NCBI GenBank assembly: GCA_018692925.1
Contig: JABHLH010000019.1
Coordinates: 63,322-127,321, forward strand
Length of the DNA: 64,000 nucleotides
Reading direction: 5' to 3'
Origin: an archaeon
GTDB taxonomy: Archaea > Nanobdellota > Nanobdellia > SCGC-AAA011-G17 > GW2011-AR17
The notes under the pieces were generated by a model. The model was not told the DNA's origin, made no database searches, and saw only the letters and a program-made list of their open reading frames with translations. The position numbers were made by a program, and so were the translations under genes. How positions within the stretch are numbered: the first letter of the stretch is position 1; every line of letters begins with the position of its first letter. This document shows positions 40,258 through 60,911 of the stretch, one piece after another.

Positions 40258-40362
40258 GGATAGTAGTTTAACTTGGCTAGAGCAGTCGGCTCCAACCCGA
40301 CAGATCGGGGAAACAATCTACGTTAAGGAGAATGTTCCGAAATTCAAATCCCTGCTATCCCA
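40258..40362 (+). tRNA. tRNA-Trp (CCA) with a putative ~32-nt non-canonical intron in the T-arm
   Basis: Acceptor GGGATAG/CTATCCC plus A73. Anticodon arm GTCGG-CUCCAAC-CCGAC. T-stem CGGGG/CCCTG with loop TTCAAAT. About 32 extra nt (AAACAATCTACG...CCGAAA) sit between T-stem 5' and the T-loop. D-stem is weak (GUUU/GAGC). Minus-strand reading rejected for lack of a T-arm. Confidence 0.5.
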
Positions 40363-41032
40363 TGTTTTTTTTTAAAGTTTTATATTTTTTTAACTTTCTT
40401 TCATTTTTAGGCTCGATATACTTAAAGAAATTTTTTACACTTGAATTTTTTCGAATTACTACTTGATGAACATTACCTCTGCAAATATAGGAAGATATAT
40501 TAAATTTTTTTAATCCCTCATGAATATCTTGTGCAAATACATAAGATTTCATTGAATATTTTATCAGAATATAATTATAACCTTTATCTTTTTGTAAAGT
40601 TACACAACCATCAGTATCAAATAAACCTCTAAGAAATGCAGCAAGATGAGAATTTTTGGAAAGTATAGAAAGTGGCAATCTTAGATCCTTTTTAGGACCA
40701 ATTGGACATTGAAGAAAAATTGAAAGAAAATTAAAGATTGTTTTTGATCTCCCCCTTAAAGTATAACAATTAGCAAAAATTTCGTGTTTTAAATAAATTC
40801 CAAATAATTCTTTAAATAATTGATCTATTCTTGCCATATATTTAGTATCGAACCTAGAGTCACCAGAATATGTAAAACAATAATCTGATTTTTTAGAATC
40901 ACACCTTAAACATCCATCACCATAATGAATACCTAAGAACTCAGAAAGTTTTATATCCATTTTTTTAGGAAGAATAATCTCTCTAGAAAAATCATTTCTG
41001 CCTCTTTTTATAATTGTTGTATCAAAATTCAT
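40355..41032 (-). CDS. LAGLIDADG-family homing endonuclease (double-motif, free-standing)
   Basis: Two LAGLIDADG motifs: LGIHYGDGC and LRGLFDTDGCV. The stop codon overlaps the 3' end of the tRNA-Trp gene. Confidence 0.75.
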   Translation of the reverse strand: MNFDTTIIKRGRNDFSREIILPKKMDIKLSEFLGIHYGDGCLRCDSKKSDYCFTYSGDSRFDTKYMARIDQLFKELFGIYLKHEIFANCYTLRGRSKTIFNFLSIFLQCPIGPKKDLRLPLSILSKNSHLAAFLRGLFDTDGCVTLQKDKGYNYILIKYSMKSYVFAQDIHEGLKKFNISSYICRGNVHQVVIRKNSSVKNFFKYIEPKNERKLKKYKTLKKNMG

Positions 41033-43041: not shown

Positions 43042-43245
43042 ATGAAAGATGGTCATAGAAGAAGTTTTGTAAAAACAATTAGCTATAGATTTTCTTCAAC
43101 AATTCTTACAGCAGTTATTGTATTTATTTTTACAAGAGATTTTACTCTTTCCTTAGGTGTAGGTGCAGCTGAGTGGATATTCAAATCATTATGGTATTAT
43201 TTCCATGAAAGAATGTGGAATTGGTATAAATGGGGTAAACATTAA
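43042..43245 (+). CDS. DUF2061-like small membrane protein
   Basis: 67 aa with RRSFVKTISYRFSSTIL...FHERMW, resembling DUF2061. The only + strand gene inside the minus-strand pilus operon. Confidence 0.4.
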   Translation: MKDGHRRSFVKTISYRFSSTILTAVIVFIFTRDFTLSLGVGAAEWIFKSLWYYFHERMWNWYKWGKH

Positions 43246-44267
43246 ACAAAAGCTTCATCTTCTTGAACATTAGAAAAATCATAATCATAAGGAACAATTA
43301 CCATTTGAGAATCTTTTACTAATAAAGTTGGTGAGACTCTAATTTGAACATTTTTATTTAGGTCACCATTAATAAAAGGAGATAAGTAAGTGTAAGTATT
43401 TGTTTCTGTGTCTATTACATCCCCAACTCCAACAACTTCTGTAATCTCTACACTGTATAAAGTAAAAGCTTCAGCACCAGCTAACTCATTTGAAAATTCT
43501 GCTACATGAGTGATTTTTGTTTCAATAGAATGAGAACTCAAAATACTTTTTGTAGATAAATCAATAAGTTCAATCTTACTAGGATATATATTAAATCCGC
43601 TTTCTTCACCTAAGAAATCTAAATCTAACTCACATTTTGAGTCTCCAGTATTTTGTAAACAAGATTCATAAGTTTCAATTTCTTCTTCAAAATTAGAAGC
43701 AAGTAATTGTTCTTTTACTGTTACACAAGCATTATCTTCACAAAAATAAATAGTGTTATCTAACCTTTCATAAGAAACAAACACAACTGCATCTTCTTCC
43801 CCCTCTCTAAGAACACCATTTGAAGGACAAGTTTTATCCAGAAAACTTAATACACTATCACTAAATTTATTACAAGCAATAGGATCATCTATACAAATAT
43901 CTTCTAAGTCAGAAATAATTGAAAAAAATGGACCCTTACATAAACATAAACAAGGAGAATTCTCACACAAATCTTGAGGAACTGTAATCTCTTCTTTACA
44001 AGGTTTTTCTGTACCTTCAAAATCTCCGCCATTATTAAAAGAAACTAAATAATAACCTTCATGTAAATTAAATAAAGTTGTATTAGAAATACCAGATTCT
44101 AAATTTTCAAGATTAAAAACTAATGATTCGAAACTCTGAGAAGTTTCAGAAGAGTCTAAAAGTTCTGTTCCGATAATTACAGAAGTTGCAATACCAACTA
44201 CAGCAATAATCATTGTTACAGTTACTAAAATTAAGTAGTCTGTTGTACCCCTTTTTGTAGATATCAT
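43242..44267 (-). CDS. pilin-like/minor pilin protein with Cys-rich ectodomain
   Basis: MISTKRGTTDYLILVTVTMIIAVVG, then a 300-aa Cys-rich domain. Confidence 0.4.
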   Translation of the reverse strand: MISTKRGTTDYLILVTVTMIIAVVGIATSVIIGTELLDSSETSQSFESLVFNLENLESGISNTTLFNLHEGYYLVSFNNGGDFEGTEKPCKEEITVPQDLCENSPCLCLCKGPFFSIISDLEDICIDDPIACNKFSDSVLSFLDKTCPSNGVLREGEEDAVVFVSYERLDNTIYFCEDNACVTVKEQLLASNFEEEIETYESCLQNTGDSKCELDLDFLGEESGFNIYPSKIELIDLSTKSILSSHSIETKITHVAEFSNELAGAEAFTLYSVEITEVVGVGDVIDTETNTYTYLSPFINGDLNKNVQIRVSPTLLVKDSQMVIVPYDYDFSNVQEDEAFV

Positions 44268-44449
44268 TCTAAAGCTAATCCTTCAGTTGCTTGTCCTAAC
44301 TCTGATCCTAAAGTAGAAGATGTTCCACTTAGAGTATCAACAAAACCAGCAATTTGATCTTGGAAGATAATAGCAACAACAATTAAAACCATTAAAGCTA
44401 GAATCAGTAAGATCATAAACCTTAGAGTTAGTTCACCTTTTTTTGTCAT
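44264..44449 (-). CDS. small pilin-like protein
   Basis: MTKKGELTLRFMILLILALMVLIVVAIIF. Confidence 0.45.
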   Translation of the reverse strand: MTKKGELTLRFMILLILALMVLIVVAIIFQDQIAGFVDTLSGTSSTLGSELGQATEGLALE

Positions 44450-44485
44450 AATTAAAATAAAAAGAATAAAAGTATTTAAAAGTTA

Positions 44486-44827
44486 CTAGGTAGAGCTTTT
44501 ACTTTTACACTCATTATCACTATTCCAAACTTTATTTAATTCTTCGAAATAATCACAATTTTTAACTGATTTACCTTGAGTGTCTTCTAAATCATCTGGG
44601 AAACCTGGGTTATCCCAACCACCTATATTATCCGTTGAACAGTATAAACTACATTTTGATTTGTATAAAGCCAATTGTTCTGCTGATGTTGAACCAACTT
44701 CTTCTGTCTGTTTAAATAAGTTACTTAATCCTCCTGTGAAGAATAAAGCAACAAGGATCAAAGCAATTAAAGCAAGTACTGCTAAAATTACAAAGTTTAA
44801 AGAAATATCCATACCTTTTTTATTCAT
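44486..44827 (-). CDS. pilin-like protein
   Basis: MNKKGMDISLNFVILAVLALIALILV, then a Cys-containing ectodomain. Confidence 0.45.
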   Translation of the reverse strand: MNKKGMDISLNFVILAVLALIALILVALFFTGGLSNLFKQTEEVGSTSAEQLALYKSKCSLYCSTDNIGGWDNPGFPDDLEDTQGKSVKNCDYFEELNKVWNSDNECKSKSST

Positions 44828-44876
44828 TGTGTTACACCTCTGAGTATATTTATATGAGAGAGATATTTAAAGTTTT

Positions 44877-45734
44877 CTATCTGACACTTTCAATATTATG
44901 ACAATAAGTTACATCTGATCCTCTAAAGAAGTTTGTAACTTCGGTACGATCCCCTACACTTATTCCAAAACCATGAAAATTATCTGAAGAATAAATTTCA
45001 ATTGGTCGCTCAATCATTTCTGTTAAAATACAAATTTTAGTATCATCTATTTTGTAAAAGATTGGTGCAGACTTTAGTGTATAAGAATAACTAGAAGTAT
45101 CATCACAAGCAGGAGGCCAACCTAAACAAACATTTGTTTCAATTTTTTTATCTTCATAAAATTCAAAAGTATAATCTGCACCTTGTTCATTAGGCCATTT
45201 ATCTGTCCTTTCATCTTGCCAATAAAGATATAGATGATTTATAGAGGCTTGATAATTACCCAAGATCTGAAAATTATCCGGAAAGATACAACCTAACTCA
45301 TTATTTGAACCAGTATTTTTATTACTTACAAAAAGACCTAAAGTATAAGGTTTTGTTTCTCTAGCTTCGTAGGTATTATCTAAAGCATTTAATACTGAAA
45401 CTGCAGAAGCTCCTTGAGAGTAAGAGTTTTGAATTAAATAAAATGAAGATTCTGAAACAGTACCCAAAGTTTGAGAATAGCAAAGACAATCCGTTCCGGC
45501 AATCGTGTTAAAACCCCCATAACAATAATCCTCAATGTTTGAAAATAATTTTTCAAAAGATGCTACAGTTTGAGATGTTGCTTCAGCTTCATCATCAACT
45601 ACAAAAACTTTATCAAAAGAATCTATAATAATACTGAAGATTTCACTAGATTGTTCATTAAATACAACCCCCATTACAAAAATGATTATAAGAATTATAA
45701 GTGCCGCAATAATAGTGTTACTCATTTCTGCCAT
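44877..45734 (-). CDS. N-terminally anchored pilus-locus protein
   Basis: MAEMSNTIIAALIILIIIFVMGVVF, then a 250-aa ectodomain. Confidence 0.4.
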   Translation of the reverse strand: MAEMSNTIIAALIILIIIFVMGVVFNEQSSEIFSIIIDSFDKVFVVDDEAEATSQTVASFEKLFSNIEDYCYGGFNTIAGTDCLCYSQTLGTVSESSFYLIQNSYSQGASAVSVLNALDNTYEARETKPYTLGLFVSNKNTGSNNELGCIFPDNFQILGNYQASINHLYLYWQDERTDKWPNEQGADYTFEFYEDKKIETNVCLGWPPACDDTSSYSYTLKSAPIFYKIDDTKICILTEMIERPIEIYSSDNFHGFGISVGDRTEVTNFFRGSDVTYCHNIESVR

Positions 45735-45735
45735 T

Positions 45736-45951
45736 TTATTTCCCTAGCGCTCCTGTAATAAGATGTTTGATTGCTTCAATTGCTTTTTCTTTTAATGTTG
45801 AAGAAAAAAACACAATTGCAATTAAGACAATAATTATTAATATGAATGCAGCGATATATTCCCAAGCAAGTTCTCCCTTTTTACTAGGCAATATTTCCTT
45901 CATCCAATGGTGGACCATAAGATAAACACCCCCTATCATCTGGGTCTTCAC
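45736..45951 (-). CDS. small Flp-like pilin candidate
   Basis: SKKGELAWEYIAAFILIIIVLIAIVFF matches the G-x4-EY Flp/Tad prepilin motif plus a hydrophobic helix. The true start may be the internal MKEIL. Confidence 0.45.
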   Translation of the reverse strand: MKTQMIGGVYLMVHHWMKEILPSKKGELAWEYIAAFILIIIVLIAIVFFSSTLKEKAIEAIKHLITGALGK

Positions 45952-46765
45952 CCACTAAGTTTTCTACAAGAATTCCGGAAGTGACTTGATTCCCAGTATC
46001 ACTAAATAAAAATGCAACAGCACCTCCAGCAATAATAAGTGCACTAGGTCCAACTACAAAAGAAAATATTGCACCATAAGCAAGTATTGTACCTGAGGCT
46101 CCTAGTTTTGCCATAGTTACAAAAATATTATCTGCAGATTGTGAATCAAAATTTCTATCTGTTGTAATTAATATCCTATCACCTTCACTAGTTCCAATTA
46201 AATCTTGATCATCATAAAAAATAATATAATAATATTCATCAGTACTTAATTTAATATCTTTAATTCCTTCAGACTCTGTATCAAAACAAAGAGTTTGGTA
46301 ATTTGTATTTTGTTCTAAATAATTATAAGCAGAATGGATAGCATCCGTTTCTGAAGCATCTTTATGTGAAATGGAATAATCAAAATATTCTACCAAACTG
46401 ATATCTTCTTTTGGACTAAAAGCATAAGCAAAATAAGTTTCATCAATTGCAGCACCAAAATCACAAGAGCCTTCTTTATACATCCACCAAGTGTCAGTTA
46501 ATACTGTCGAAAATTCTTCCATAGAGATTGGATCTTCAACTACATTAAATCTACATGCTGTTGGAAAATATGAAAAAAATCCACCACCACATTTAGCTGT
46601 GTTTGTCATCCAACAAGCTGTTTGAGCAAAAAAATCTGAAGTGAAAGTACCTTGCATAAATAAAACAAGACTAACTATTGATAAAATTACAATTACTGCG
46701 ATAATTAATTTAGCAGTTTGCTCTGGAGCTAACTTACCTCTTTTGTTTTTAGCCAAGGATTGCAT
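45884..46765 (-). CDS. pilin-like protein
   Basis: KNKRGKLAPEQTAKLIIAVIVILSIVSLVLF has E at +5 after the G. Confidence 0.45.
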   Translation of the reverse strand: MQSLAKNKRGKLAPEQTAKLIIAVIVILSIVSLVLFMQGTFTSDFFAQTACWMTNTAKCGGGFFSYFPTACRFNVVEDPISMEEFSTVLTDTWWMYKEGSCDFGAAIDETYFAYAFSPKEDISLVEYFDYSISHKDASETDAIHSAYNYLEQNTNYQTLCFDTESEGIKDIKLSTDEYYYIIFYDDQDLIGTSEGDRILITTDRNFDSQSADNIFVTMAKLGASGTILAYGAIFSFVVGPSALIIAGGAVAFLFSDTGNQVTSGILVENLVGEDPDDRGCLSYGPPLDEGNIA

Positions 46766-46848
46766 TTTTTACACCTAATAATATAACTGTAACAGCGAGG
46801 AATAATACAACAATTGCAATTAAGATTACTAATGTTCTCCCTGTCATT

Positions 46849-49008
46849 TTATATTTGTCCTACTGAAAGTGCCAATAAGTTGAAAGCAAATATTGTTACA
46901 CCTGCAATTAATATGTATAAGAGTGTGCCTCTATATAAATTTTTACCTAAAGTATATTCTTCATTTAATTTGTCTACACCATTCTCAATACCGTTTGCAA
47001 GTACTGTTAATACTATAATCATCTGTACAACATAAATACCCACAATCATTTGTAAATAAAATGGAGGAATGATTTTATCAATTGGAAAAATGTTTGCAAT
47101 ATTACTAGCACCAGATAAAACACTTGCATCTGAACCAGAAGTTGCAGATTGTAAGGATGTTCCTAAACTAGAAATAATAGCAGTAATCATTGTACCAATA
47201 CCAACTACAATACCAGCAATTAATGGAGTTAGAAAACTAACTTGTGATTTCATTGAAGATGTAATTTCAGATAATAAATCTTTTAACCTTTCAGAAACTT
47301 TGTAAATTTTATCTAAATAATCAGCAATACTAAGTAAAGCTCTTGATACAACCATAGGACCTTTCCTAGAAGATTCTACTAAAACTTTCATTGTACTTTC
47401 AATTAAGGATGAAGGGTAAGTTAAGATTGCACCATTCTTTTCATTGAAAATTGCATCTTGTAAATTCATACCAATGCTTCGAATATTTTTGTCAACAATA
47501 CCTAAGAATACTCCAGTAGGAGTTCCAGCCAAACCTCTTGCAACTTCACCAAAAGCCATTTCCGAAGGCATACCTCCACCAATCCTGTTACCAAGTTGGA
47601 AGATTGCTCCTCTGAATTCAGTTTCAAGTTTTTTTGTTTCTTCTCTAATTTTTATTAATTTGTTTGATCTAATAGAAAAATAAGATCCAATTCCAAAAGC
47701 TAAACCAATAGGAATGAATAAACTTAACATAGTAGCACCAAGACCAAATGGACCAATAGACTCACCAGTGTCTAAAACTCTGTAATCTAAAAGCATAATA
47801 TTATCTGTAATAAATAATTCTGTTGCAGGATCTATAAAATGCAAAATAACTGGAGCAAATCCAATCATTAATAAGACGAATAATAAAAATATTGCTACAT
47901 GTTTGGGTTCAATTAATACTTCTTTATCTTTAGATAATTTAAGAGAGAATTTTCTAAGTTTTTCAAATTGAGGTAAACTAGTAATGTCGGATTGAGCATA
48001 ACCTATTGGCCTCTTTGCTAACATAGTATAACCAAAATAAAATACTGCGAAAGGTAAAATTAAGTTGTAAAGCATTGCAATGTGATACCATTTGATCCCC
48101 ATGAAACTTCCAATTAAAGGTAAAATGATTAAACCTAAAATAGGTAAGATAACTCCAAGCATGTGAAGCATTGTCATAGGAGACTTTACTTCTTGAGCAT
48201 AATGAAGCATACTATCATAAGTTCCCTCTAAAATAACTGAAAGAGATTTTTCTAAAAGTTCTATCCTTCTTTTTTCTTGTCCTTCAAATAATGAAGATTC
48301 AATTAAATGAAATGATTCTACAAAAGCTAAATTGTGATCTTTCCAACCAACTAAATAACTTTCTAAAGATTCTTGAACTGTTGGATATTTTTTAGTTTCA
48401 GCATCCCATAAAATTTTTCTTAAGTCTAAAGATAAAGGTTCTGCAACATGTTCACCTGCAAATTTAATTGCATGTTCTAAATTAGAAGTGTGACGCATGT
48501 AAATTACAGTATACAAAATACAAAGAACCATTTGATTAGAAGCTTGTAATCTTCTCTTTTGTGCTAAGTGTTGAGGAAATTTTGATAAAGGTAAGAAAAG
48601 TAAAACTCCACAAATAACCAACATAAAAGGAACTAAAAGTTGTGTGAAACCAAAAAAGAAAGTGACCATAAAAACAAATAAACCTAAAAGAATAAATGAA
48701 AACATTGTTAAGATTGCAAAAGTATAAGCTGCAGCAGGAGTTATGTTTAAATGAATTTGATCAATTGCATCTTGCATTTCTTTTTTTACTTCTTCCTTTG
48801 CAGGAGCTAAGTCAATTAAAGAATGTGCAAAATTACAAGCTCTTTCGTAAAGAGTGTCTTGTATATGTAAAGCTTCTTGTCTAAAAGTTTCGTAATCTTG
48901 AGTAAATTTATCAGAAGAAGGTTGGTCCATTAAAGAGCCTGTATTCGCACCTAACTTAGTACCATACTTGTTCATAATATTTTGAAACCTAGGATCTATC
49001 TTCACCAT
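46849..49008 (-). CDS. type IV pilus/archaellum assembly platform membrane protein (FlaJ/TadC/PilC-like, T2SS-F domains)
   Basis: 719 aa. Two repeated cytoplasmic helical T2SS-F-like domains alternate with TM blocks. Located in the same operon as the FlaI-like ATPase and the pilins. Confidence 0.6.
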   Translation of the reverse strand: MVKIDPRFQNIMNKYGTKLGANTGSLMDQPSSDKFTQDYETFRQEALHIQDTLYERACNFAHSLIDLAPAKEEVKKEMQDAIDQIHLNITPAAAYTFAILTMFSFILLGLFVFMVTFFFGFTQLLVPFMLVICGVLLFLPLSKFPQHLAQKRRLQASNQMVLCILYTVIYMRHTSNLEHAIKFAGEHVAEPLSLDLRKILWDAETKKYPTVQESLESYLVGWKDHNLAFVESFHLIESSLFEGQEKRRIELLEKSLSVILEGTYDSMLHYAQEVKSPMTMLHMLGVILPILGLIILPLIGSFMGIKWYHIAMLYNLILPFAVFYFGYTMLAKRPIGYAQSDITSLPQFEKLRKFSLKLSKDKEVLIEPKHVAIFLLFVLLMIGFAPVILHFIDPATELFITDNIMLLDYRVLDTGESIGPFGLGATMLSLFIPIGLAFGIGSYFSIRSNKLIKIREETKKLETEFRGAIFQLGNRIGGGMPSEMAFGEVARGLAGTPTGVFLGIVDKNIRSIGMNLQDAIFNEKNGAILTYPSSLIESTMKVLVESSRKGPMVVSRALLSIADYLDKIYKVSERLKDLLSEITSSMKSQVSFLTPLIAGIVVGIGTMITAIISSLGTSLQSATSGSDASVLSGASNIANIFPIDKIIPPFYLQMIVGIYVVQMIIVLTVLANGIENGVDKLNEEYTLGKNLYRGTLLYILIAGVTIFAFNLLALSVGQI

Positions 49009-49631: not shown

Positions 49632-51812
49632 TTAAAGTTTCTTAAATTTTAACAACAAAGAGTTTGTTACAACACTAACACTACTCATAGCCATAGCTCC
49701 TCCAGCAATTATTGGAGAGAGTAACCAACCAGTGTAAGGATATAAAACTCCAGCAGCAATAGGTATCCCTAGAACATTGTAAAATAAAGCCCAAAATAAA
49801 TTCCCTCTAATCTTAGACATTGTTAACTTACTAAGCTTAATTGCTTTTGCAACATCAACAGGATTGTCCCTCATCAAAACTATGTTTCCAGTTTCCATAG
49901 CAACATCAGTTCCAGAACCCATTGCAATTCCAATCTCAGCTTGAGCTAAAGCAGGTGCATCATTTATTCCATCACCAACCATTGCAACTTTTCCTTTTCT
50001 TTGTAATTTTTTAACATAGTTTGCTTTATCCTTAGGTAAAACTTCAGCAAAAACATTTTTGATGCCAACACTTTTTGCAATAGCTTTTGCAGTTCTTTTA
50101 TTGTCTCCAGTGATCATGTAAACTTTTATGCCCATCTTTTTTAATTTTGAAACAGCTTTTCCAGAAGATTCTCTCAATTTATCAGCAACAGCAATAATAC
50201 CTAATAACTCTTTACCTGAAGCTAAGAACATTACAGTCTTTCCTTCTTCTTCTAACTTGTTAATATTATCTAATTCTTTTTTTAAGCTTACTTTATTATC
50301 TTTCATTAATTTAGTATTACCAAAGAAATATTCTTTTCTTCCGACCTTAGCTTTTATACCATGACCAAGTATAGCTTTGAAAGCAGTTACTTTAGGAATT
50401 GAAACTTTTTCTTTCATAGCATGATTAATTATTGCTTCAGCTAAAGGATGTTCAGATTGTTTTTCTAAACCTGCTACAATTTTTAAAATATCCTTTTCTT
50501 TATTTTTACCAAAAGTAATCAAATCAGTTAGTTCAGGTTTACCTTTTGTAATTGTTCCAGTTTTATCGAAAATAACATATTTAATTTGGTGTGCAGTTTC
50601 TAAAGCTTCTCCACCCTTGATTAAAATCCCCTTGTTTGCACCCTTACCAGTACCAACCATAATTGCAGTTGGTGTAGCTAAACCTAAAGCACAAGGACAA
50701 GCAATTACTAATACAGCAACAGAAGCAATTAATGCAAATGAAATTCCAGCACCAAAAGTTACCCAAGTTATGAAAGTTATCAAAGAAATTGCAATAACAG
50801 TAGGAACAAAGTAAGCTGAAACAAGATCAGCAAACCTTTGAATAGGTGCTTTTGTTTCTTGAGCTTCTTCAACTAATTTAATAATTTGTGCTAAAGTTGT
50901 ATCTGCTCCAATCTTTGTAGCTTTAAATTGGAATGCTCCTAATTTGTTTATTGTTCCACCAATAACTAAGTCGCCAATATTTTTTTCGATAGGAATACTT
51001 TCACCTGTGATCATACTTTCATCAATAGAAGAGTGACCACTAGTTAGTTTACCATCAACAGGAATTTTTTCTCCAGGTTTTACAAGAATAATATCTCCTA
51101 CAATAACTTCTTCAATAGGAATTCTAATCTCTTTTTTATTTCTAATTACTAAAGCAGTCTTTGGACTTAAGCCCATTAATTTTTTTATTGCATCAGAAGT
51201 TTTGCCTTTAGCAATTGCTTCTAACCATTTACCCATAACAACTAAAGTGATTAAAATTGCTGAAGTTTCGAAATACTGTCCTAAACTAGGATTAAATAAT
51301 ACAGCATATACACTAAAGAAATATGCAGCACTTGTACCAAGAGCAATTAAAGAGTCCATGTTTGCAGTTTTGTTCTTTAAAGCTGCCCATGCACCTAAAT
51401 AAAATCTTTTTCCAATATAAAATTGAATAGGTGTAGCTAATGCCCATAATATATAATCATTAAAAGGGATATGAATTTTCATCCACATAAAAATCATTCC
51501 AATAACAAAAGCTGGAATAGCAAAAATAAGACTAAGAAGAAACATTTTTTTGTAGTAATTTATTTCTTTCTTTAAAAAATCGGCATGTTTATCCCCAGCT
51601 TTCAAAAATGATGCATTATAACCTTTGCTTTTTATGGTTTTAATAATTTCTTTTTCTGAAATAATCTTCTCATCAAAAATTATCCTAGCCTTAGAAGTAG
51701 CAAAATTAATTGTTGCTTCATGGACACCTTTAGTCTTTTTTAAAGACTTATCAATAACTGTAGCACAACTAGAACAAGTCATACCACTGATTTGTAATTT
51801 TGTTTTCTTCAT
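49632..51812 (-). CDS. copA: copper-translocating P1B-type ATPase
   Basis: N-terminal [16 protein letters not shown] motif ([11 protein letters not shown]), [17 protein letters not shown]. Confidence 0.9.
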
Positions 51813-51833: not shown

Positions 51834-52265
51834 TTAAAACATATAAGCTTTACTTTCTAGATCAGCTTCTGAAATAACAATATAATCTCCTTCAATTACA
51901 AAATCTAAATTAGATGGCCAACATCCTCCGCCAGTATTAGTAGATCCTAAATCATCAATACTAAAAACTCTACCACACTTAATACATTCAACATCAGTTC
52001 CTCTTTGAGCATAACCTTGGTATCCTCCACAAACATCACATGCATCAAAAGCAGTTCGTACTTCTCCATCAGAACCTAAGACTGCGAAGTAAGTTATAGT
52101 TTTACCATTATAATCATGAGTGTATTTTGTTAGTTCAGAAGAAATTTCTGAAATAGGAATTTTAATAAGTCCTTCTTCTAAAACTGCGTCTCCAGTAATT
52201 GTACTACTACAGCCTGTTACAATTAATGTAAACAAAGCTAATAAAATTATTATTGTTTTTTTCAT
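51834..52265 (-). CDS. lipoprotein-like Cys-motif protein (CxxC...CxxC), metal-module member
   Basis: Signal peptide with VTGCSS lipobox. DACDVCGG...CIKCG...GGGCWP. Possibly DUF2318-like. Confidence 0.4.
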   Translation of the reverse strand: MKKTIIILLALFTLIVTGCSSTITGDAVLEEGLIKIPISEISSELTKYTHDYNGKTITYFAVLGSDGEVRTAFDACDVCGGYQGYAQRGTDVECIKCGRVFSIDDLGSTNTGGGCWPSNLDFVIEGDYIVISEADLESKAYMF

Positions 52266-52269
52266 TTAT

Positions 52270-52335
52270 TTAACCTCCACAGCCTCCGCCGCAACCTCCG
52301 CCACAGCCTCCACCGCAGCCTCCACCACAAGAAGT
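52270..52335 (-). repeat. 12-nt tandem repeat encoding (CGGG)n
   Basis: The plus strand reads cctccgcc(g/a)ca(a/g)cctcc with about 5 units. Confidence 0.7.
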
Positions 52336-53718
52336 TCCACTTGGAACAGCTGCAGCTTCATTTATACTTTCTTCAAGATCTGCACTTGAATAATCATCAA
52401 GATCATCAACTACAATAAAGGTTCCAGGAATCATTCCCATCCAACAACTCCAAGAAACTATTCCTTCTTCTGTAGCTGTGAACTCAATTGTTTGTTCACC
52501 ATACTCAAGATCAAAAGCTAAACCTAACTTTGGAACTTGTATTGCATTGTTACAACCATTTAATTCTTCAGCATTAATAATCCAATGGACGGGCACATCT
52601 TTTTCAATAACAAATAAATCTGTTTGCCAACCATATCTATCAACAGTTAAATAAATTTCTTGATAACCAGATTTCATAACTGCTAAACTATCTGATTCTA
52701 CAGAATCAATATTATTTGCAGAAACTAAACCAGCTAAAGAATTAAAATCATAACCAGTACCAGTTAAAGCTAATGCATTGTTAACCATTAATAGACCTAA
52801 GATAATTACTATGGCACCAGATGCTTTCAAAATTTTGTGAGTCATTTTGCTTGAAACTAAACTTGCAAAAAAACCAAAACCAAGCATAACAGGTAAAGTA
52901 CCTAAGGCGAAAACAAAAAGGAGAGTTGCGCCTTCAATAATACTTCCAGTTCCTGCTGCCATAATATAGATTGCTTGCAAAGGGCCGCAAGCAATCATTA
53001 GTCCATTTAGTAGGCCAATAATTAAAGGACTAGAACTTCTGTTTTTCCCAACAAACTTGTTAAGGAATTTGGGAGTCTTAAAAGAAAGTTTTCTTAAGAC
53101 AGGGAAAATATTTAACATTTTTAATCCGAAGATTATTAAAAATAAACCAGCTATTAATCCAGCAATACCTCTCATCATAGGAGTGAAAGCAATTATTGAA
53201 CCTAGTAAACCAAAAAATGCTCCTATTAAAGTATAAGAAACAGTTTTACCTAAACCATACATGAAATGAGATTTGTAAGGTTTTCTTCCAGCTTCGACAT
53301 CTTTTGCAGTGTAAGAAACAACGAAACCACCACACATACTAATACAATGAAAACCTGTTAGTAAACCTACAACAAATAATAAACCATAACCCATCCCTGA
53401 ACTTATTTCAGGTAATTGAATTGCATTAGTTAAATTAATTAAAAAATATAAAGCGATAACTATTCCAAGAATTGCAAATGCCCAAGCCCAATATTTTCTT
53501 TTTGAATTATTTTGATCACAAGAATAACCTTTCTCTGAAATTTTAGATTGTATTTCTTTTAAGCTAATTAAATCTTCATCATATGTTACTTCAGCTTTTT
53601 GAGTTGCATAGTTTACTTTAATTTTTTGAATACCATCTAAATCAGAAACTTGTTTTTTTATAATAGTTTCACAAGAACCACAAACCATACCATCTATTTT
53701 AAAATTTGTTTTTTTCAT
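52270..53718 (-). CDS. HMA-domain membrane protein (DsbD-like/TauE-like TM core) with C-terminal (CGGG)n tail
   Basis: N-terminal HMA GMVCGSCE. Six to eight TM helices with an internal CISMCGG. C-terminal soluble domain ending SCGGGCGGGCGGGCGGGCGG. Confidence 0.55.
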   Translation of the reverse strand: MKKTNFKIDGMVCGSCETIIKKQVSDLDGIQKIKVNYATQKAEVTYDEDLISLKEIQSKISEKGYSCDQNNSKRKYWAWAFAILGIVIALYFLINLTNAIQLPEISSGMGYGLLFVVGLLTGFHCISMCGGFVVSYTAKDVEAGRKPYKSHFMYGLGKTVSYTLIGAFFGLLGSIIAFTPMMRGIAGLIAGLFLIIFGLKMLNIFPVLRKLSFKTPKFLNKFVGKNRSSSPLIIGLLNGLMIACGPLQAIYIMAAGTGSIIEGATLLFVFALGTLPVMLGFGFFASLVSSKMTHKILKASGAIVIILGLLMVNNALALTGTGYDFNSLAGLVSANNIDSVESDSLAVMKSGYQEIYLTVDRYGWQTDLFVIEKDVPVHWIINAEELNGCNNAIQVPKLGLAFDLEYGEQTIEFTATEEGIVSWSCWMGMIPGTFIVVDDLDDYSSADLEESINEAAAVPSGTSCGGGCGGGCGGGCGGGCGG

Positions 53719-53912
53719 TCTGCTTTGTAACCTTCCTTCCCAATTACTTTTTTAATATCCTCAAGAGAAATTTTAGTTTCATCAAAGGTGATTGTGATTA
53801 TTTCTTTTTCAAAAGAAATATCTTTAACACCTAATTCTTCTAATGAGTCTTTTATTAGCATCTCACAACTTTTACAATGCATGCCACCTACTTTGAATTT
53901 TTCTGTTTTCAT
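53715..53912 (-). CDS. copZ: copper chaperone CopZ (HMA domain)
   Basis: 65 aa with GMHCKSCE and a ferredoxin-like fold. Confidence 0.8.
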   Translation of the reverse strand: MKTEKFKVGGMHCKSCEMLIKDSLEELGVKDISFEKEIITITFDETKISLEDIKKVIGKEGYKAE

Positions 53913-54018: not shown

Positions 54019-54549
54019 TCAAAATTTCTTTTTTAGGTAGATTTCTTTGGTCTTTCCAGCCTCTTTTCGGTAAATAATGTCCCTTTCTTCCAACTTTTTT
54101 AATACTAAAGAAAGCAAAGTTTTGGATATACCAGTCTTGTATCTCAAAGTAGATTGTTTGATTCCTTCTTTATCATGAACTGCCTTTAAGATCTTTTGTT
54201 CTTGATCGTTAAATCCTGAAACAAATGCTTTGAATTCATCCTTTTCTTTTGCAGTTTGTAATGCAGATGAAACTTCTTTATGTTGTTCCACTAATATTTT
54301 TTGAGTTTTATCAAAGTAGATGAGATAAATTCCAAGTATTAAAATTGCTAAAGTTATAATCCCCCCAAGATAAAATAAAGTATAATCTCGATCTTCATGT
54401 AAACAAGAACCATCATCTAAATAACATGAACCTTGCTCGTCAATGATTGTAGAAATATATTGATCTTCTTGTGCTTTAAAGTAGAATAAAAATACTAGTA
54501 GTAATACTGCGATAATGATTAGTATGGTACCAATTTTATTCTGATTCAT
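54019..54549 (-). CDS. membrane-tethered winged-helix transcription regulator
   Basis: Two TM helices flank a CYLDDGSC loop. C-terminal wHTH (EQKILKAVHDKEGIKQSTLRYKTGISKTLLSLVLKKLEERDIIYRK). Sits directly upstream of the cop genes. Confidence 0.5.
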   Translation of the reverse strand: MNQNKIGTILIIIAVLLLVFLFYFKAQEDQYISTIIDEQGSCYLDDGSCLHEDRDYTLFYLGGIITLAILILGIYLIYFDKTQKILVEQHKEVSSALQTAKEKDEFKAFVSGFNDQEQKILKAVHDKEGIKQSTLRYKTGISKTLLSLVLKKLEERDIIYRKEAGKTKEIYLKKKF

Positions 54550-54580: not shown

Positions 54581-56857
54581 TTACTGATTTTTCAATTCTT
54601 CTTTTAGCCATTCTTCCCATCTTTCTTTAATGAGTTTTGTATCTTGAGAGCCTACATCATTTTTTACTTCTTCAGAAATTCTATAAAACTTTTCATTTGA
54701 TTTCAAAGAAAACTCTGCTTCTAAAATATTTTTATCATTAATTTTTTTAGAATAATCAACTAATAAAGATTTAATTTCAGCTCTTAATTTAATATTGTCC
54801 CAAATTGCATCCCAGTTTCCAACCCATTCTTTAACTCCACCACCAATTGCTTTCAAAACTTCAGAGTCACCATTGATTAAATCAGGAGTAGGTTCTAACA
54901 TATCAGTTTTAGCATTGTATTTCATTAAGTCAACAAAACCATTTTCTTGTAAAGGATCATCTTCCCAGGTTTTTCTAACTTCAGTAATAGAAGTAACTCT
55001 TCTCATTTTGCTCATACCAGAAGCAGATTGAATTGGAGAACACATAACAATAATATCAGTTGCCTTGAAAGAAGTTTTTGGTACACCTAAATCATTTACA
55101 ACTCTGTCAAAAATACCATAAGGAGAATCTCCGTGAATAGTTCCTGCAACAACATTAGCAGATGCACCAATTCTCATTGCTTCATAAAGTGCAAGAGCTT
55201 CAGTACTTCTAACTTCCCCTACAATAAGTGCAGAATCACCAAGTCTTAAAGAAGTTCTAATTCCTTCATCAGCTGGAACCTCTGCTCCACCTTTTACTAA
55301 AGCAGATCTAACTTTTAAGGGTTGAATGTTATAACCAAGTTTTCTCATTGCTTCACTTGGAAGTTCTAAAGTATCCTCAACAGTTAATACTCTATACTTT
55401 CTCATAATTTCTAACAACATAGAACCTAAGAAAGATGATTTACCAGAGGACCTAGTTCCTGCAACTAAATGTGTTCTTGCTCCGTGAATTGTAAAACTTA
55501 AAAGACCTGCTCCTAATGGAGAAATCATTTTGTTCTCAATAAATAAAGGTAAAGTCCAAGGTTTATCTCTGTGTCTTCTAAAAGACATACCATAACCATA
55601 AGGATTTAATGGTTTACCAATAATTGAAAGTCTTGATCTTGCTTTAGGTAAAATTACTTCTGTATCTAAAATAGGGTTTGCTTCGTCTAAAGGCCTTCCA
55701 GAAAGTAATCTTAACTTTGTTGCCCAACTTTCAAAATCATTTACTGTTGGAGTAATATTTGTTGTACATTCATTGTGATCATTGTGTAAAAGAAAAATTG
55801 GAACTTGGCCCATAGGAGAATTTATTGTTAAGTCTTGAACATTAGGATCTTCTAATAATAATTCAATAACACCAAAACCAATTGTGTGCCTCACTAAAAT
55901 CTCTGTAAGATTTTCTATTTCTTCAGGAGAAAGAAACATCCCTTTTTGTTCAGCAAGTTCTTGAATCATACCTTTACCTATATTGGTAAAAGTTCTACGC
56001 ATTTTATGAGGGTCTAAAAATTCTTCATTTCTGGGTTGATGTTCAGAAAGAACTTTTCTTGCTAACTCAATTAACTCATATTGGTCCTCTGTAAGATTAA
56101 ATTCTGGAGGATTAATTTGATATAATTTTTTAATGTCATCTTTTAATTCATAAACTGTTACATCTGTTGTAGGATTTATTTTGTAAATTGCTAATTGTTT
56201 TCCATCAAGAGGAGGAGAAGTTACTAACTTAGTATACATAAAATCTGGAGTTATTGAAGGTTTGAAAAATAATTTGTAAATTTCTCTATTGTTTAAAGTA
56301 TAACCTGGAAGATATTCTCTTGCCAAATCAATAAGTTTAGTTTTATCTAATTGTATAAAAATTTGATTTAACATATCTAAATATATTTGTAAAGATTGTT
56401 TTTGTGTAATGTCAGTTGTAGATTTTAAAATAATATTATTCTGCCTAAGCAATCTTTTTAACTCTACATAAGCACCAAGAGGATCTGTTTTTAATAAAGT
56501 GAAAAGAATAAATCTTAATGGATCAAACCTTTGACCTAAAACTTGTGGAGGATCAGAAGCTAAACCAAAATTTTCTAACCTTGTAGCTTTTTTACTCTTT
56601 ACAAAATAATTGTAAATATTTGCAATTTCTATTAAAAGTTGAGTTTGATCATAACTATAATTATAATTTCTCCTTTGTGAAAAAATTAAACGAGAAATAG
56701 AAGGATTTTCAATTAATTTTTCAATAGCATCAAGCATAACTAAATGATTATCTTCAATTGAAGGTATGTGAGAAATGGATTCATAATTAATTTTAAGAAT
56801 CTCATCCTCTCCCTCTTTTAAGATTTCAGTATTATTTGGTGTTTGTGTGTAAACCAT
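54581..56857 (-). CDS. type IV pilus/archaellum assembly ATPase (FlaI/TadA/VirB11 family) with long N-terminal extension
   Basis: Walker A GTRSSGKSS, Asp-box VLTVEDTLEL, Walker B DSALIVGEVRS, His-box GTIHGDSPYG. 758 aa. Confidence 0.8.
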   Translation of the reverse strand: MVYTQTPNNTEILKEGEDEILKINYESISHIPSIEDNHLVMLDAIEKLIENPSISRLIFSQRRNYNYSYDQTQLLIEIANIYNYFVKSKKATRLENFGLASDPPQVLGQRFDPLRFILFTLLKTDPLGAYVELKRLLRQNNIILKSTTDITQKQSLQIYLDMLNQIFIQLDKTKLIDLAREYLPGYTLNNREIYKLFFKPSITPDFMYTKLVTSPPLDGKQLAIYKINPTTDVTVYELKDDIKKLYQINPPEFNLTEDQYELIELARKVLSEHQPRNEEFLDPHKMRRTFTNIGKGMIQELAEQKGMFLSPEEIENLTEILVRHTIGFGVIELLLEDPNVQDLTINSPMGQVPIFLLHNDHNECTTNITPTVNDFESWATKLRLLSGRPLDEANPILDTEVILPKARSRLSIIGKPLNPYGYGMSFRRHRDKPWTLPLFIENKMISPLGAGLLSFTIHGARTHLVAGTRSSGKSSFLGSMLLEIMRKYRVLTVEDTLELPSEAMRKLGYNIQPLKVRSALVKGGAEVPADEGIRTSLRLGDSALIVGEVRSTEALALYEAMRIGASANVVAGTIHGDSPYGIFDRVVNDLGVPKTSFKATDIIVMCSPIQSASGMSKMRRVTSITEVRKTWEDDPLQENGFVDLMKYNAKTDMLEPTPDLINGDSEVLKAIGGGVKEWVGNWDAIWDNIKLRAEIKSLLVDYSKKINDKNILEAEFSLKSNEKFYRISEEVKNDVGSQDTKLIKERWEEWLKEELKNQ

Positions 56858-60239: not shown

Positions 60240-60911
60240 ATGCATAAAATAGGCAATTTATGGTTGATTGGGACCTCACACATTTCTCCAGAGAGTGTGA
60301 AAGAGGTTAGAAAAGTTATTTTGGAAAATGAAGTTGATATAGTAGCTATTGAATTAGATAAAGGAAGATTTTTATCTTTGATGGGGAAAAAATCTAAGAT
60401 TAGAATTAGAGAGATTAGAAGAATTGGTGTGAAAGGATTTCTATTTATGTTGTTAGGAGCTTGGGTTGAAGAACAATTAGGGAAAGTTGTGAAAACAAAA
60501 CCAGGAGCTGAAATGAAAAGTGCAGTGAAAGCTGCAGCCAAAATAAAAGCTAGGATTGCATTGATTGATCAAAATATTAATATTACATTGAAAAGATTGT
60601 TTAAAGAAATTACTTGGAAAGAAAAGTTTAGATTTGTTTGGGATATTATTAAGGGAGTTGTATTAAGAAAACAAGAAATTGAAGGTTTTGATTTGAGAAA
60701 AGTACCAAGCGAAAATATGATTGCTAAACTAGTTGATAAAGTAAAAGATAGGTATCCTTCTATTTACAAAACTTTGATCCATGAAAGAAATATTGTTATG
60801 GCTAATAGATTAGTTAAAATGATGCAAAGAGAAGAAGATAAAAAAATTGTTGCAGTTGTTGGTGCTGGTCATGTTAGAGGTATGATGGAAATAATAAAAA
60901 AGAAAATATGA
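60240..60911 (+). CDS. TraB/PrgY-family protein
   Basis: LIGTSHISPESVKEVRKVILENEVDIVAIELDKGR and C-terminal VVGAGHVRG match the TraB family. Confidence 0.6.
   Translation: MHKIGNLWLIGTSHISPESVKEVRKVILENEVDIVAIELDKGRFLSLMGKKSKIRIREIRRIGVKGFLFMLLGAWVEEQLGKVVKTKPGAEMKSAVKAAAKIKARIALIDQNINITLKRLFKEITWKEKFRFVWDIIKGVVLRKQEIEGFDLRKVPSENMIAKLVDKVKDRYPSIYKTLIHERNIVMANRLVKMMQREEDKKIVAVVGAGHVRGMMEIIKKKI

Follow-up and report, generated by a model that had tools for sequence, protein, structure and literature searches.

A polytopic membrane protein with a Cys/Gly tail in a copper operon of an uncultured DPANN archaeon

The locus

We analysed a window of 64 kb of DNA from an uncultured DPANN archaeon (GenBank assembly GCA_018692925.1, contig JABHLH010000019.1), and all positions given below refer to this window. 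It contains a copper operon of five tightly packed genes, all on the minus strand, which encode in this order a regulator, a CopZ-like metallochaperone, a polytopic membrane protein, an FtrD-like lipoprotein and a Cu+ P-type ATPase (Table 1). The subject of this study is the third gene, an intact open reading frame (ORF) with an ATG start and a TAA stop, whose product of 482 aa, hereafter the target protein, ends in SCGGGCGGGCGGGCGGGCGG. This Cys/Gly tail had been singled out in an earlier reading of the sequence (the original prediction). Plus-strand ORFs lying over the gene are antisense read-throughs; the minus-strand product has thousands of homologs (n = 3460, the closest at 89% identity). 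An identical partial copy of the target is annotated in an archaeal metagenome-assembled genome (MAG) at NCBI.

Table 1. Features of the target gene and of the surrounding operon. TM, transmembrane helix; AF2, AlphaFold2 model; wHTH, winged helix-turn-helix.
Feature	Position (nt)	Strand	Residues or size	Remarks
Target gene (whole)	52270..53718	-		Order HMA, TM0, DsbD_2 core, CupA-like domain, linker, Cys/Gly tail
HMA domain	53524..53703	-	res 6-65	GMVCGSC; predicted cytoplasmic; Pfam PF00403, E 1.7e-17
TM0, extra helix	53425..53493	-	res 76-98	KRK before it; AF2 helix 72-99; from hydrophobicity and K/R counts
DsbD_2 six-helix core	52792..53379	-	res 114-309	Pfam PF13386, E 2.1e-45
TM1 motif H124-C125-x2-M128-C129-G-G	53332-53349	-		Invariant in 60 homologs
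TM4 motif A243-C244-G245-P246	52981-52992	-		Invariant in 60 homologs
CupA-type cupredoxin Cu(I)-binding domain	52408..52680	-	res 347-437	Predicted extracytoplasmic
C389	52552-52554	-		Aligns with first CupA Cys
C425-W-M427-G-M429	52432-52446	-		Aligns with CupA CGMNM
Acidic linker	52330..52407	-	res 438-463, ~26 aa	Single short helix 445-456 (AF2)
Cys/Gly tail	52273..52329	-	res 464-482	(CGGG)4-CGG; predicted disordered
Membrane-tethered winged-helix regulator	54019..54549	-	176 aa	TM, loop GSCYLDDGSCLHEDRD, TM, wHTH; Pfam DUF7343, MarR
CopZ-like HMA metallochaperone	53715..53912	-	65 aa	Pfam HMA, E 1.8e-12; stop overlaps target start by 4 nt
FtrD-like (DUF2318) lipoprotein	51834..52265	-	143 aa	Lipobox VTGC; begins 4 nt past target stop
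P1B-type Cu+/Ag+ ATPase, CopA-like	49632..51812	-	726 aa	Pfam E1-E2_ATPase, Hydrolase, N-terminal HMA
Shine-Dalgarno-like overlap	52263..52278	-		Last Gly codons GGA GGT, TAA, ATAA, then ATG of next gene

Domain organization and topology

The original prediction had described an N-terminal metal-binding domain, a DsbD/TauE-like membrane core with an internal CxxxC, a soluble C-terminal domain and the tail, and this order was found to be correct, though incomplete. The N-terminal domain is indeed metal-binding in type: it is recognized by Pfam as HMA, with a ferredoxin-like beta-alpha-beta-beta-alpha-beta fold and a GMxCxxC metal-binding loop. The CxxxC is present in the first core helix, where the target reads H124-C125-I-S-M128-C129. 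Conservation was examined in an alignment of 60 homologs at 61-89% identity. In addition to the motifs of Table 1, the invariant positions comprise C13 and C16 of the HMA domain, and C389, C425, M427 and M429 of the C-terminal domain; G130 and G131 of TM1 are likewise invariant.

The DsbD-like nature proposed for the core was borne out, the Pfam family DsbD_2 being aligned over profile positions 2-198 of 199 with a score of 155.5 bits against a cut-off of 24.9. The two other suggestions, TauE and MerT, were not, as neither matches the core. No TauE match was obtained in Pfam or NCBIfam at E <= 0.01, and the name "sulfite exporter TauE/SafE family protein" given by NCBI to relatives appears to be a misnomer. 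The NCBIfam models MerTP and MerT/CopZ cover only the HMA part (residues 2-66), with scores far under their cut-offs. DsbD_TM (PF02683), i.e. CcdA/DsbD proper, reached 26.5 bits, under the Pfam cut-off of 27.1; no CcdA or DsbD chain was present among the PDB sequence matches at E <= 1, and the solved CcdA/DsbD structures gave neither a sequence match nor a top-ranked fold match. The sole curated family matching the core is ArsG in NCBIfam, an efflux permease for thiol-reactive arsenicals, and this match is weak (E 3.5e-6).

In the AF2 model six core helices follow TM0, which takes the chain from inside to outside ahead of the core. There are thus seven TM helices altogether, and the two ends of the protein lie on opposite sides of the membrane. 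In 60 sequences the loops after TM1, TM3 and TM5 contain on average 3.7, 6.7 and 3.3 Lys+Arg residues, and those after TM0, TM2 and TM4 contain 0.1, 1.1 and 0.0. By the positive-inside rule the HMA domain is therefore predicted to be cytoplasmic, and the C-terminal domain and tail to be extracytoplasmic. In Methylocystis homologs a LysM peptidoglycan-binding domain follows the C-terminal domain (Pfam E 2.3e-6), a fusion which independently supports the predicted outside location.

The soluble C-terminal domain was thus present as claimed; what had been missed is its identity as a CupA-type cupredoxin domain and its predicted location outside the cell. Pfam gave no match for the isolated C-terminal 163 aa, Cupredoxin_1 included, even at E 10, and the identification comes from a family profile compared with PDB sequences and from a fold search. 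This profile matches CupA itself with E 1.8e-16. The domain forms an eight-stranded cupredoxin-like barrel and contains the ligand set of the binuclear Cu(I) site of CupA, Cys ... Cys-x-Met-x-Met. Relatives do pass Pfam Cupredoxin_1 (P0130 with 49.2 bits, P0008 with 57.4 bits).

A search with the cupredoxin domain alone retrieved 1618 cluster representatives at E <= 1e-3. More than half of the 150 best relatives found in this way (78) have at least two Cys in their last 16 residues, with CC in 41 and CxC in 32, and the bacterial ones with terminal Cys include an Acidobacteriota copy ending in SCCGG. Two or more Cys at the end of a flexible linker are thus a general accompaniment of the cupredoxin domain, the (CGGG)n of the target being one elaboration of them.

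The Cys/Gly tail in the target and in its family

The coding strand of the gene ends with a Ser codon (tct), the blocks tgt ggt gga ggc, tgc ggt gga ggc, tgt ggc gga ggt, tgc ggc gga ggc and tgt gga ggt, and the stop taa. The peptide S-(CGGG)4-CGG which they encode has Cys at positions 464, 468, 472, 476 and 480, i.e. 5 Cys in 19 residues. It is modelled as disordered, with an AF2 predicted local distance difference test score (pLDDT) of 27-38, and among the ORFs of the window only the target has such a stretch.

The tail was surveyed, with a composition filter, in 199 relatives having the CxMxM motif. A Cys/Gly/Ser-rich tail ends 177 of them, and at least three more tailed ones escaped the filter. 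The tail is real, neither a chance product nor an artefact, and homologs of the target are not devoid of it. Its length in the family ranges from 5 to 32 residues (median 14), Gly, Cys and Ser make up 51%, 23% and 11% of it, and a median of 33 aa separates the CxMxM motif from the first tail Cys. The number of Cys is bimodal (3 in 102 proteins, 5 in 66). A CGC lies within the final ten residues of 157 of the 177 tails, CGCGG being the usual ending, and the usual forms are GSCGG(x)nGGCGCGG and GSCGGSCGSSTCGAAxGGxCGCGG. Members without a tail are mainly the methanotroph, Chloroflexia and Methanoperedens copies. As a side observation, an FtrD-like, thioredoxin or DsbA-like gene was found near none of 18 tail-less loci, mostly bacterial, and near 25 of 62 tail-bearing loci, a contrast which is confounded by phylogeny.

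The tail itself is thus a family feature, but (CGGG)n, the form named in the original prediction, is not: what the family shares is a tail rich in Cys, Gly and Ser that contains 3 or 5 Cys, and the (CGGG)n form is a minor version of it. Runs of at least three CGGG units occur in only 3 of the 199 relatives, namely the target and two proteins at 61% and 52% identity (L005 and L034). These two encode (CGGG)4 with codons differing from those of the target, so that the periodic form either arose more than once or was held at the peptide level.

DNA encoding (CGGG)4CG was found in more than 119 metagenome loci, none of them from the target family. Many are spurious frames, antisense or non-coding, in DNA that is GC-rich or repetitive, e.g. 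the antisense strand of a (TTSA)n gene in L103. Where the repeat is genuine, it ends membrane proteins unrelated to the target, namely TIGR04222 (E 1.8e-28 and 4.5e-19), DUF2207 and TPM-domain proteins, which indicates that the literal (CGGG)n peptide is recurrent on prokaryotic membrane proteins and not unique to the target. Among such bacterial proteins, literal (CGGG)4-6 CGGCGG tails were observed on TIGR04222 proteins (L094, L115, L126, L137, L195 and L200), on a DUF2207 protein (L141) and on a TPM protein (L134).

The DNA repeat and its variation within the species

The tail had also been described as encoded by a 12-nt tandem DNA repeat prone to copy-number variation. The array is present, as Tandem Repeats Finder reports a period of 12 with 3.7 copies and 84% matches (52280-52323), and a period of 24 with 2.2 copies and 89% matches (52277-52329). 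Its periodicity, however, is no higher than codon shuffles lead one to expect: over the 57 nt of tail DNA the period-12 identity is 0.80, compared with a mean of 0.77 in synonymous-codon shuffles (P = 0.32). With the ordinary codon usage of the gene an identity of 0.854 and a longest exact repeat of ~15 nt would be expected, compared with 11 nt observed in the imperfect units of the tail. The Gly codons of the tail mix GGA, GGC and GGT; elsewhere in the gene GGT represents 64% of Gly codons. The repetition in the DNA is thus a consequence of that in the peptide, and if anything it stays below the level that other codon choices could have produced.

On many contigs the FtrD-like neighbour is present without change. 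From the same species we compared nine independent assemblies, and in seven of these the sequence extends to the tail-coding DNA. The gene is 1449 nt long in all six assemblies compared in full, and the tail copy number is identical in every assembly reaching the tail, the window included. A frameshift or assembly artefact is excluded, other assemblies of the species giving the same ORF. Two haplotypes exist, which are distinguished by 21-22 positions along the gene. Only two of the differences fall within the codons of (CGGG)4CGG, and both are synonymous (TGC to TGT at codon 468, GGT to GGC at codon 475). Purifying selection seems to act on the tail peptide within the species. No variation in tail copy number was seen at the assembly level between the two haplotypes, and a search for the species in JGI metagenomes by exact anchors gave 0 matches. 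The proneness to copy-number variation is therefore not supported: the units are imperfect with a longest exact repeat of 11 nt, the codons diverse and the copy number constant, and the tail repeat has neither the long exact units nor the copy-number differences between close strains of a contingency locus. Over longer times the tail does change by indels, as in the 89%-identical ortholog L081, where two 6-nt indels move the Cys spacing at equal tail length.

In the second haplotype (L203, 2848-3000; also L207, L208 and L210) we observed an extra Cys-rich ORF of 50 aa between the tail and the FtrD-like gene, with the pattern MKNNCSICHK...CKLCG...FCSRNC and sub-threshold Pfam matches to zf-FCS and other zinc ribbons. 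It has no counterpart at window positions 52266-52269. Small ORFs resembling it follow the gene in L002, L020, L031, L044 and L056.

Other genes of the operon

The ATPase contains in its translation the motifs CPC, N-x6-YN-x4-P and M-x2-SS-x5-N, a set which is the signature of the Cu+/Ag+ subtype. Matches of the 65-aa chaperone to the NCBIfam CopZ models are below their cut-offs. The FtrD-like lipoprotein has invariant C76, C79, C94 and C97, plus C115, and lacks a twin-arginine motif. It has a Sec-type lipoprotein signal and a predicted Rieske-type fold, in which four Cys replace the Cys2His2 ligands. An Fe-S role was considered on account of this fold, yet with a Sec/lipobox signal and no twin-arginine, export of a pre-assembled cluster would be unlikely.

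The GGAGGT at the end of the tail sits 7 nt upstream of the ATG of the FtrD-like gene. In ~20 related loci (L001-L056) GGAGG is likewise present in terminal Gly-Gly codons, with the next start 1-10 nt past the stop, and the end of the tail seems to double as ribosome-binding site of the downstream gene.

The loop of the regulator, ~35 aa long and outer, carries GSCYLDDGSCLH. In 33 regulator homologs encoded upstream of the same gene it has the form C-x7-C-x-H or C-[ST]-H-G-x2-C-P-M-W. With such Cys/His/Met ligands on the outer face, the regulator is a candidate one-component sensor of extracytoplasmic copper. A sigma-70 promoter and terminator scan of the operon, which is not applicable to archaea, gave counts at or under shuffle expectation.

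Distribution of the family and its gene neighbourhoods

A scan of one genome per species gave 556 relatives, so that the family occurs in at least this number of species-level genomes. DPANN groups predominate among the best 80 (Woesearchaeota, Nanoarchaeota, Micrarchaeota, Aenigmatarchaeota, Iainarchaeota and Undinarchaeota); Altiarchaeota, Methanoperedens, deltaproteobacterial and Chloroflexia MAGs, and methanotrophs are represented too. The methanotrophs with homologs are Methylocystis, Methylotuvimicrobium buryatense 5G, Methylobacter, Methylomicrobium and Methylovulum. In most archaeal loci the gene is followed directly, on the same strand, by that of a CopA-type ATPase; several methanotroph loci have one within a few kb. 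Linkage to such an ATPase recurs in most of the 81 related loci.

All neighbours in 81 related loci were clustered into families. A regulator is present in 45 loci, an FtrD-like protein in 17, a thioredoxin lipoprotein (WCSHC) in 10, a DsbA-like membrane-anchored protein in 8, an ArsR-type regulator in 8, and Met-rich small proteins, in methanotrophs, in 6. The thioredoxin lipoprotein or DsbA-like gene was found in 16 distinct loci. No modifying enzyme, MNIO included, is among the recurrent families of the 81 loci.

Methanotroph homologs show further variations. The alphaproteobacterial ones (Methylocystis L053 and L059) keep the HMA domain and have the added C-terminal LysM. Gammaproteobacterial ones have neither HMA domain nor Cys tail (L062, L064, L072 and L077-L079 in Methylococcaceae; L057, 6040-7311, in M. 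buryatense 5G), and are encoded close to CopA-type ATPases and to Met-rich proteins of small size (MGMGPMMSEGMGSMM...).

Comparison with known systems

The C-terminal domain was compared with Streptococcus pneumoniae CupA and the N-terminal domain of CopA (PDB 4F2E, 2MRY and 4F2F). CupA is a single-TM, cytoplasm-facing protein whose Cu(I) is received by a cupredoxin domain of CopA (PMC7558416). In the target the cupredoxin domain is instead the C-terminal part of a 7-TM protein, is predicted to face outward and is followed by the Cys/Gly tail, and the partner ATPase has an N-terminal HMA domain, not a cupredoxin domain. By its predicted topology and the HMA domain of its CopA, the target is therefore not a cytoplasm-facing chaperone feeding a CopA cupredoxin domain. 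CupA has moreover been described as confined to a few streptococci (PMC7558416), whereas the domain of the target has the 1618 cluster representatives mentioned above.

With DsbD, CcdA and ScsB the target shares a related 6-TM core, Cys in TM1 and TM4, and soluble Cys domains fused at the ends; ScsB is in addition tied to copper stress, and thioredoxin-fold partners are present in some operons related to that of the target. It differs from them by a core of the DsbD_2 and not the DsbD_TM type, by H-C-x2-M-C in TM1, and by fused domains which are metal-binding (HMA, cupredoxin) and not thioredoxin-like or Ig-like.

The closest literature concerns gut Firmicutes, where proteins with HMA, DsbD_2 and DUF2318 (COG2836), as well as DUF2318-only proteins, belong to a CsoR regulon that copper derepresses (PMC4938975); the inference of this regulon is the one relevant result on the family which we found. 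These proteins share with the target the HMA-DsbD_2 backbone and the association with DUF2318/FtrD-like proteins, copper chaperones and CopA. DUF2318 is fused in them, whereas it is a separate lipoprotein in the target operon. Their regulation was inferred, and PMC4938975 describes no cupredoxin domain or Cys tail and gives no functional data.

The tail resembles other short, flexible, Cys-rich termini found on or beside metal transporters, which hand soft metals on, and its composition is close to that of small Cu(I) metallothioneins. Soft metals are bound by Cys-rich segments such as the C-terminal domain of yeast Ctr1, the CxC of CCS domain 3, the C-terminal CC of MerA and fungal Cu-metallothionein. 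The di-Cys tail of plant HMA4 is also such a metal-binding terminal segment (PMC6255694). Unlike these cytoplasmic Ctr1, CCS, MerA and HMA4 tails, that of the target is predicted to be extracytoplasmic, and there is no sequence homology between them. The same literal (CGGG)n CGGCGG C-terminus is shared with the TIGR04222, DUF2207 and TPM-domain membrane proteins; the rest of the target is unrelated to these, which have no copper-transport domains. For the Cys-rich tails of TIGR04222 proteins a periplasmic location and a lack of structure are predicted, and a link to MNIO enzymes building copper-chelating groups was described in 2025 (PMC12452194); such enzymes, linked to some TIGR04222-type proteins, were not found among the 10 nearest large ORFs of the window.

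As a whole, the target family is a large and mis-annotated one, which brings known copper-handling parts together in an undescribed combination.

A possible Cu(I) relay and its alternatives

The reading which we favour, tentatively and as somewhat short of probable, is that of a thiol-lined Cu(I) relay across the membrane, working in export or hand-off, with the tail as a multi-thiolate arm on the outer face. His, Cys and Met are the typical Cu(I) ligands. Two recognised Cu(I)-binding domains lie, by prediction, on opposite faces of the membrane and are joined by a core with an invariant His, three Cys and a Met; the linkage to a Cu+ ATPase and the conservation and disorder of the tail complete this basis. 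From it we infer Cu(I) as the transported species, its direction and metal binding by the tail. The cytoplasmic HMA domain would take Cu(I) through its CxxC, probably from the CopZ encoded just upstream, and give it to a putative intramembrane site formed by H124, C125, M128 and C129 of TM1 and C244 of TM4. Cu(I) would then be handed on to the extracytoplasmic CupA-type site (C389, C425, M427 and M429), the whole passage taking place by ligand exchange. The disordered five-Cys tail, on its linker of ~25 residues, could act as a mobile arm buffering Cu(I) at the outer face, and might also exchange it with neighbours, e.g. the FtrD-like lipoprotein or CopA at its exit side. The general idea of the tail as a thiol-based metal-handling element, already contained in the original prediction, is supported in this way, metal binding by the tail itself being the conditional part. 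Export or hand-off is favoured over import because of the operon and of the Firmicute relatives in the CsoR regulon, and because the core weakly resembles an efflux permease.

Several points weigh against this relay. We know of no characterised member of the DsbD/CcdA superfamily that moves metals; those characterised move electrons. The thioredoxin-fold lipoproteins or DsbA-like proteins of 16 related operons fit a redox role. The TM core is modelled with moderate confidence (AF2 pLDDT 60-85), and a secondary Cu(I) exporter beside an ATP-driven one seems redundant. Since gammaproteobacterial methanotroph homologs lack the HMA domain and the tail, neither can be essential to the core function. 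Finally, no experimental study of the family was found in the literature. The stronger statement that the family is a new class of secondary Cu(I) transporter, in which a DsbD-type scaffold was turned from electron to metal relay, with chaperone domains on both faces and a metallothionein-like outer tether, is possible but doubtful. The metallothionein-like character of the tail is a matter of composition and predicted disorder (5 Cys in 19 residues; 23% Cys and 51% Gly in the family).

The main rival is a reductant conduit, in which the DsbD_2 core moves reducing equivalents outward and keeps copper-binding Cys of the outer face reduced under copper stress, i.e. those of the CupA-like domain, the tail, the FtrD-like lipoprotein and thioredoxin-like partners; the tail would be a substrate or a shuttle. 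Pfam places the core in the DsbD clan, its conserved Cys lie in TM1 and TM4 as in CcdA/DsbD, and the thioredoxin lipoprotein (10 loci) and DsbA-like protein (8 loci), 16 distinct loci in all, belong to the same operons. DUF2318 has two CxxC motifs and a periplasmic redox role has been proposed for it (PMC10783030), in the copper-induced Scs system the DsbD-like ScsB is coupled to ScsC, a thioredoxin-like protein which binds Cu(I) (PMC10907172, PMC8900818), and CupA can reduce Cu(II) in vitro (PMC7558416). We nevertheless consider this conduit rather unlikely: the cytoplasmic partner domain is a metal-binding HMA and not a thioredoxin, the invariant His, Met and second Cys of TM1 are needless for a pure disulfide relay, DsbD_TM stays under the Pfam cut-off with no match to solved CcdA or DsbD, and the window operon encodes no thioredoxin-fold partner. 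The Cu(I) relay and the conduit are not mutually exclusive.

The same relay could also run inward, the outer tail and CupA-like domain capturing scarce Cu(I) to feed the cytoplasmic HMA domain. An outward high-affinity capture arm suits uptake, homologs are present in the copper-hungry methanotrophs Methylotuvimicrobium, Methylobacter and Methylocystis, and an inward thiol relay has a precedent in the MerP-MerT-MerA mercury route. Few copper enzymes, on the other hand, are known in DPANN archaea. Import appears improbable given the tight operon linkage with the exporter CopA and CopZ, and given that the Firmicute relatives belong to a CsoR regulon, switched on by excess copper (PMC4938975).

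That the tail is a low-complexity extension without function, or else a hypermutable contingency repeat, with terminal Gly codons kept partly as ribosome-binding site of the next gene, is in our opinion quite improbable. Tail length and spacing do vary widely between genera, the ortholog L081 differs by its two indels, the GGAGG of the last codons precedes the next start in ~20 loci, and Gly-rich tails are common on unrelated membrane proteins. Against this, the Cys counts fall in two classes, CGC is kept near the end of most tails, changes within the species are synonymous only at constant copy number, and (CGGG)4 recurs with other codons in homologs at 61% and 52% identity. A phase switch is precluded, the unit being a multiple of 3 and imperfect, with a longest exact repeat of 11 nt.

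Post-translational modification of the tail into a membrane-tethered copper chelator, e.g. by MNIO-type conversion of Cys to thiooxazoles as in bufferins, is very hard to credit: although TIGR04222 proteins, some of which carry (CGGG)n tails in metagenomes, have very similar unstructured Cys/Gly/Ser C-termini, predicted periplasmic and often adjoining MNIO enzymes (PMC12452194), no MNIO or other candidate modifying enzyme is encoded among the 10 nearest large ORFs of the window or the recurrent families of the 81 loci, the MNIO substrates of that study come from bacterial groups only, and the target has no TIGR04222 domain in NCBIfam.

Returning to the Cu(I) relay, copper export by P-type ATPases is well understood, whereas the fate of Cu(I) once it has reached the outside of cells with a single membrane (archaea, Gram-positives) is not. 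The family puts, by prediction, a CupA-type site and a poly-Cys arm on this outer face, linked through a Cys/His/Met core to a cytoplasmic HMA domain. If the protein moves Cu(I), it would be a new type of transporter, which could bear on surface copper movement in single-membrane organisms and would take the CupA paradigm well outside the streptococci. Should it move electrons instead, it would be a compact archaeal counterpart of the Scs system. Under either reading the database name "sulfite exporter" needs correcting. The methanotroph homologs provide a genetically tractable test bed for the family.

Other observations in the window

Downstream of the copper operon, the ORFs at 43242-49008 have no Pfam match. 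Elsewhere, the window contains a free-standing LAGLIDADG homing-endonuclease-like ORF (225 aa, 40355-41032, minus strand) and an ORF of the TraB/PrgY/GumN family (223 aa, 60240-60911, plus strand). The type IV secretion/pilus ATPase at 54581-56857 has 758 aa and no intein. In L081 (318-4145 and 6449-6498) the FtrD-like gene is absent between the target and CopA, and the type IV secretion/pilus ATPase, of 1275 aa, carries an intein with a LAGLIDADG domain.

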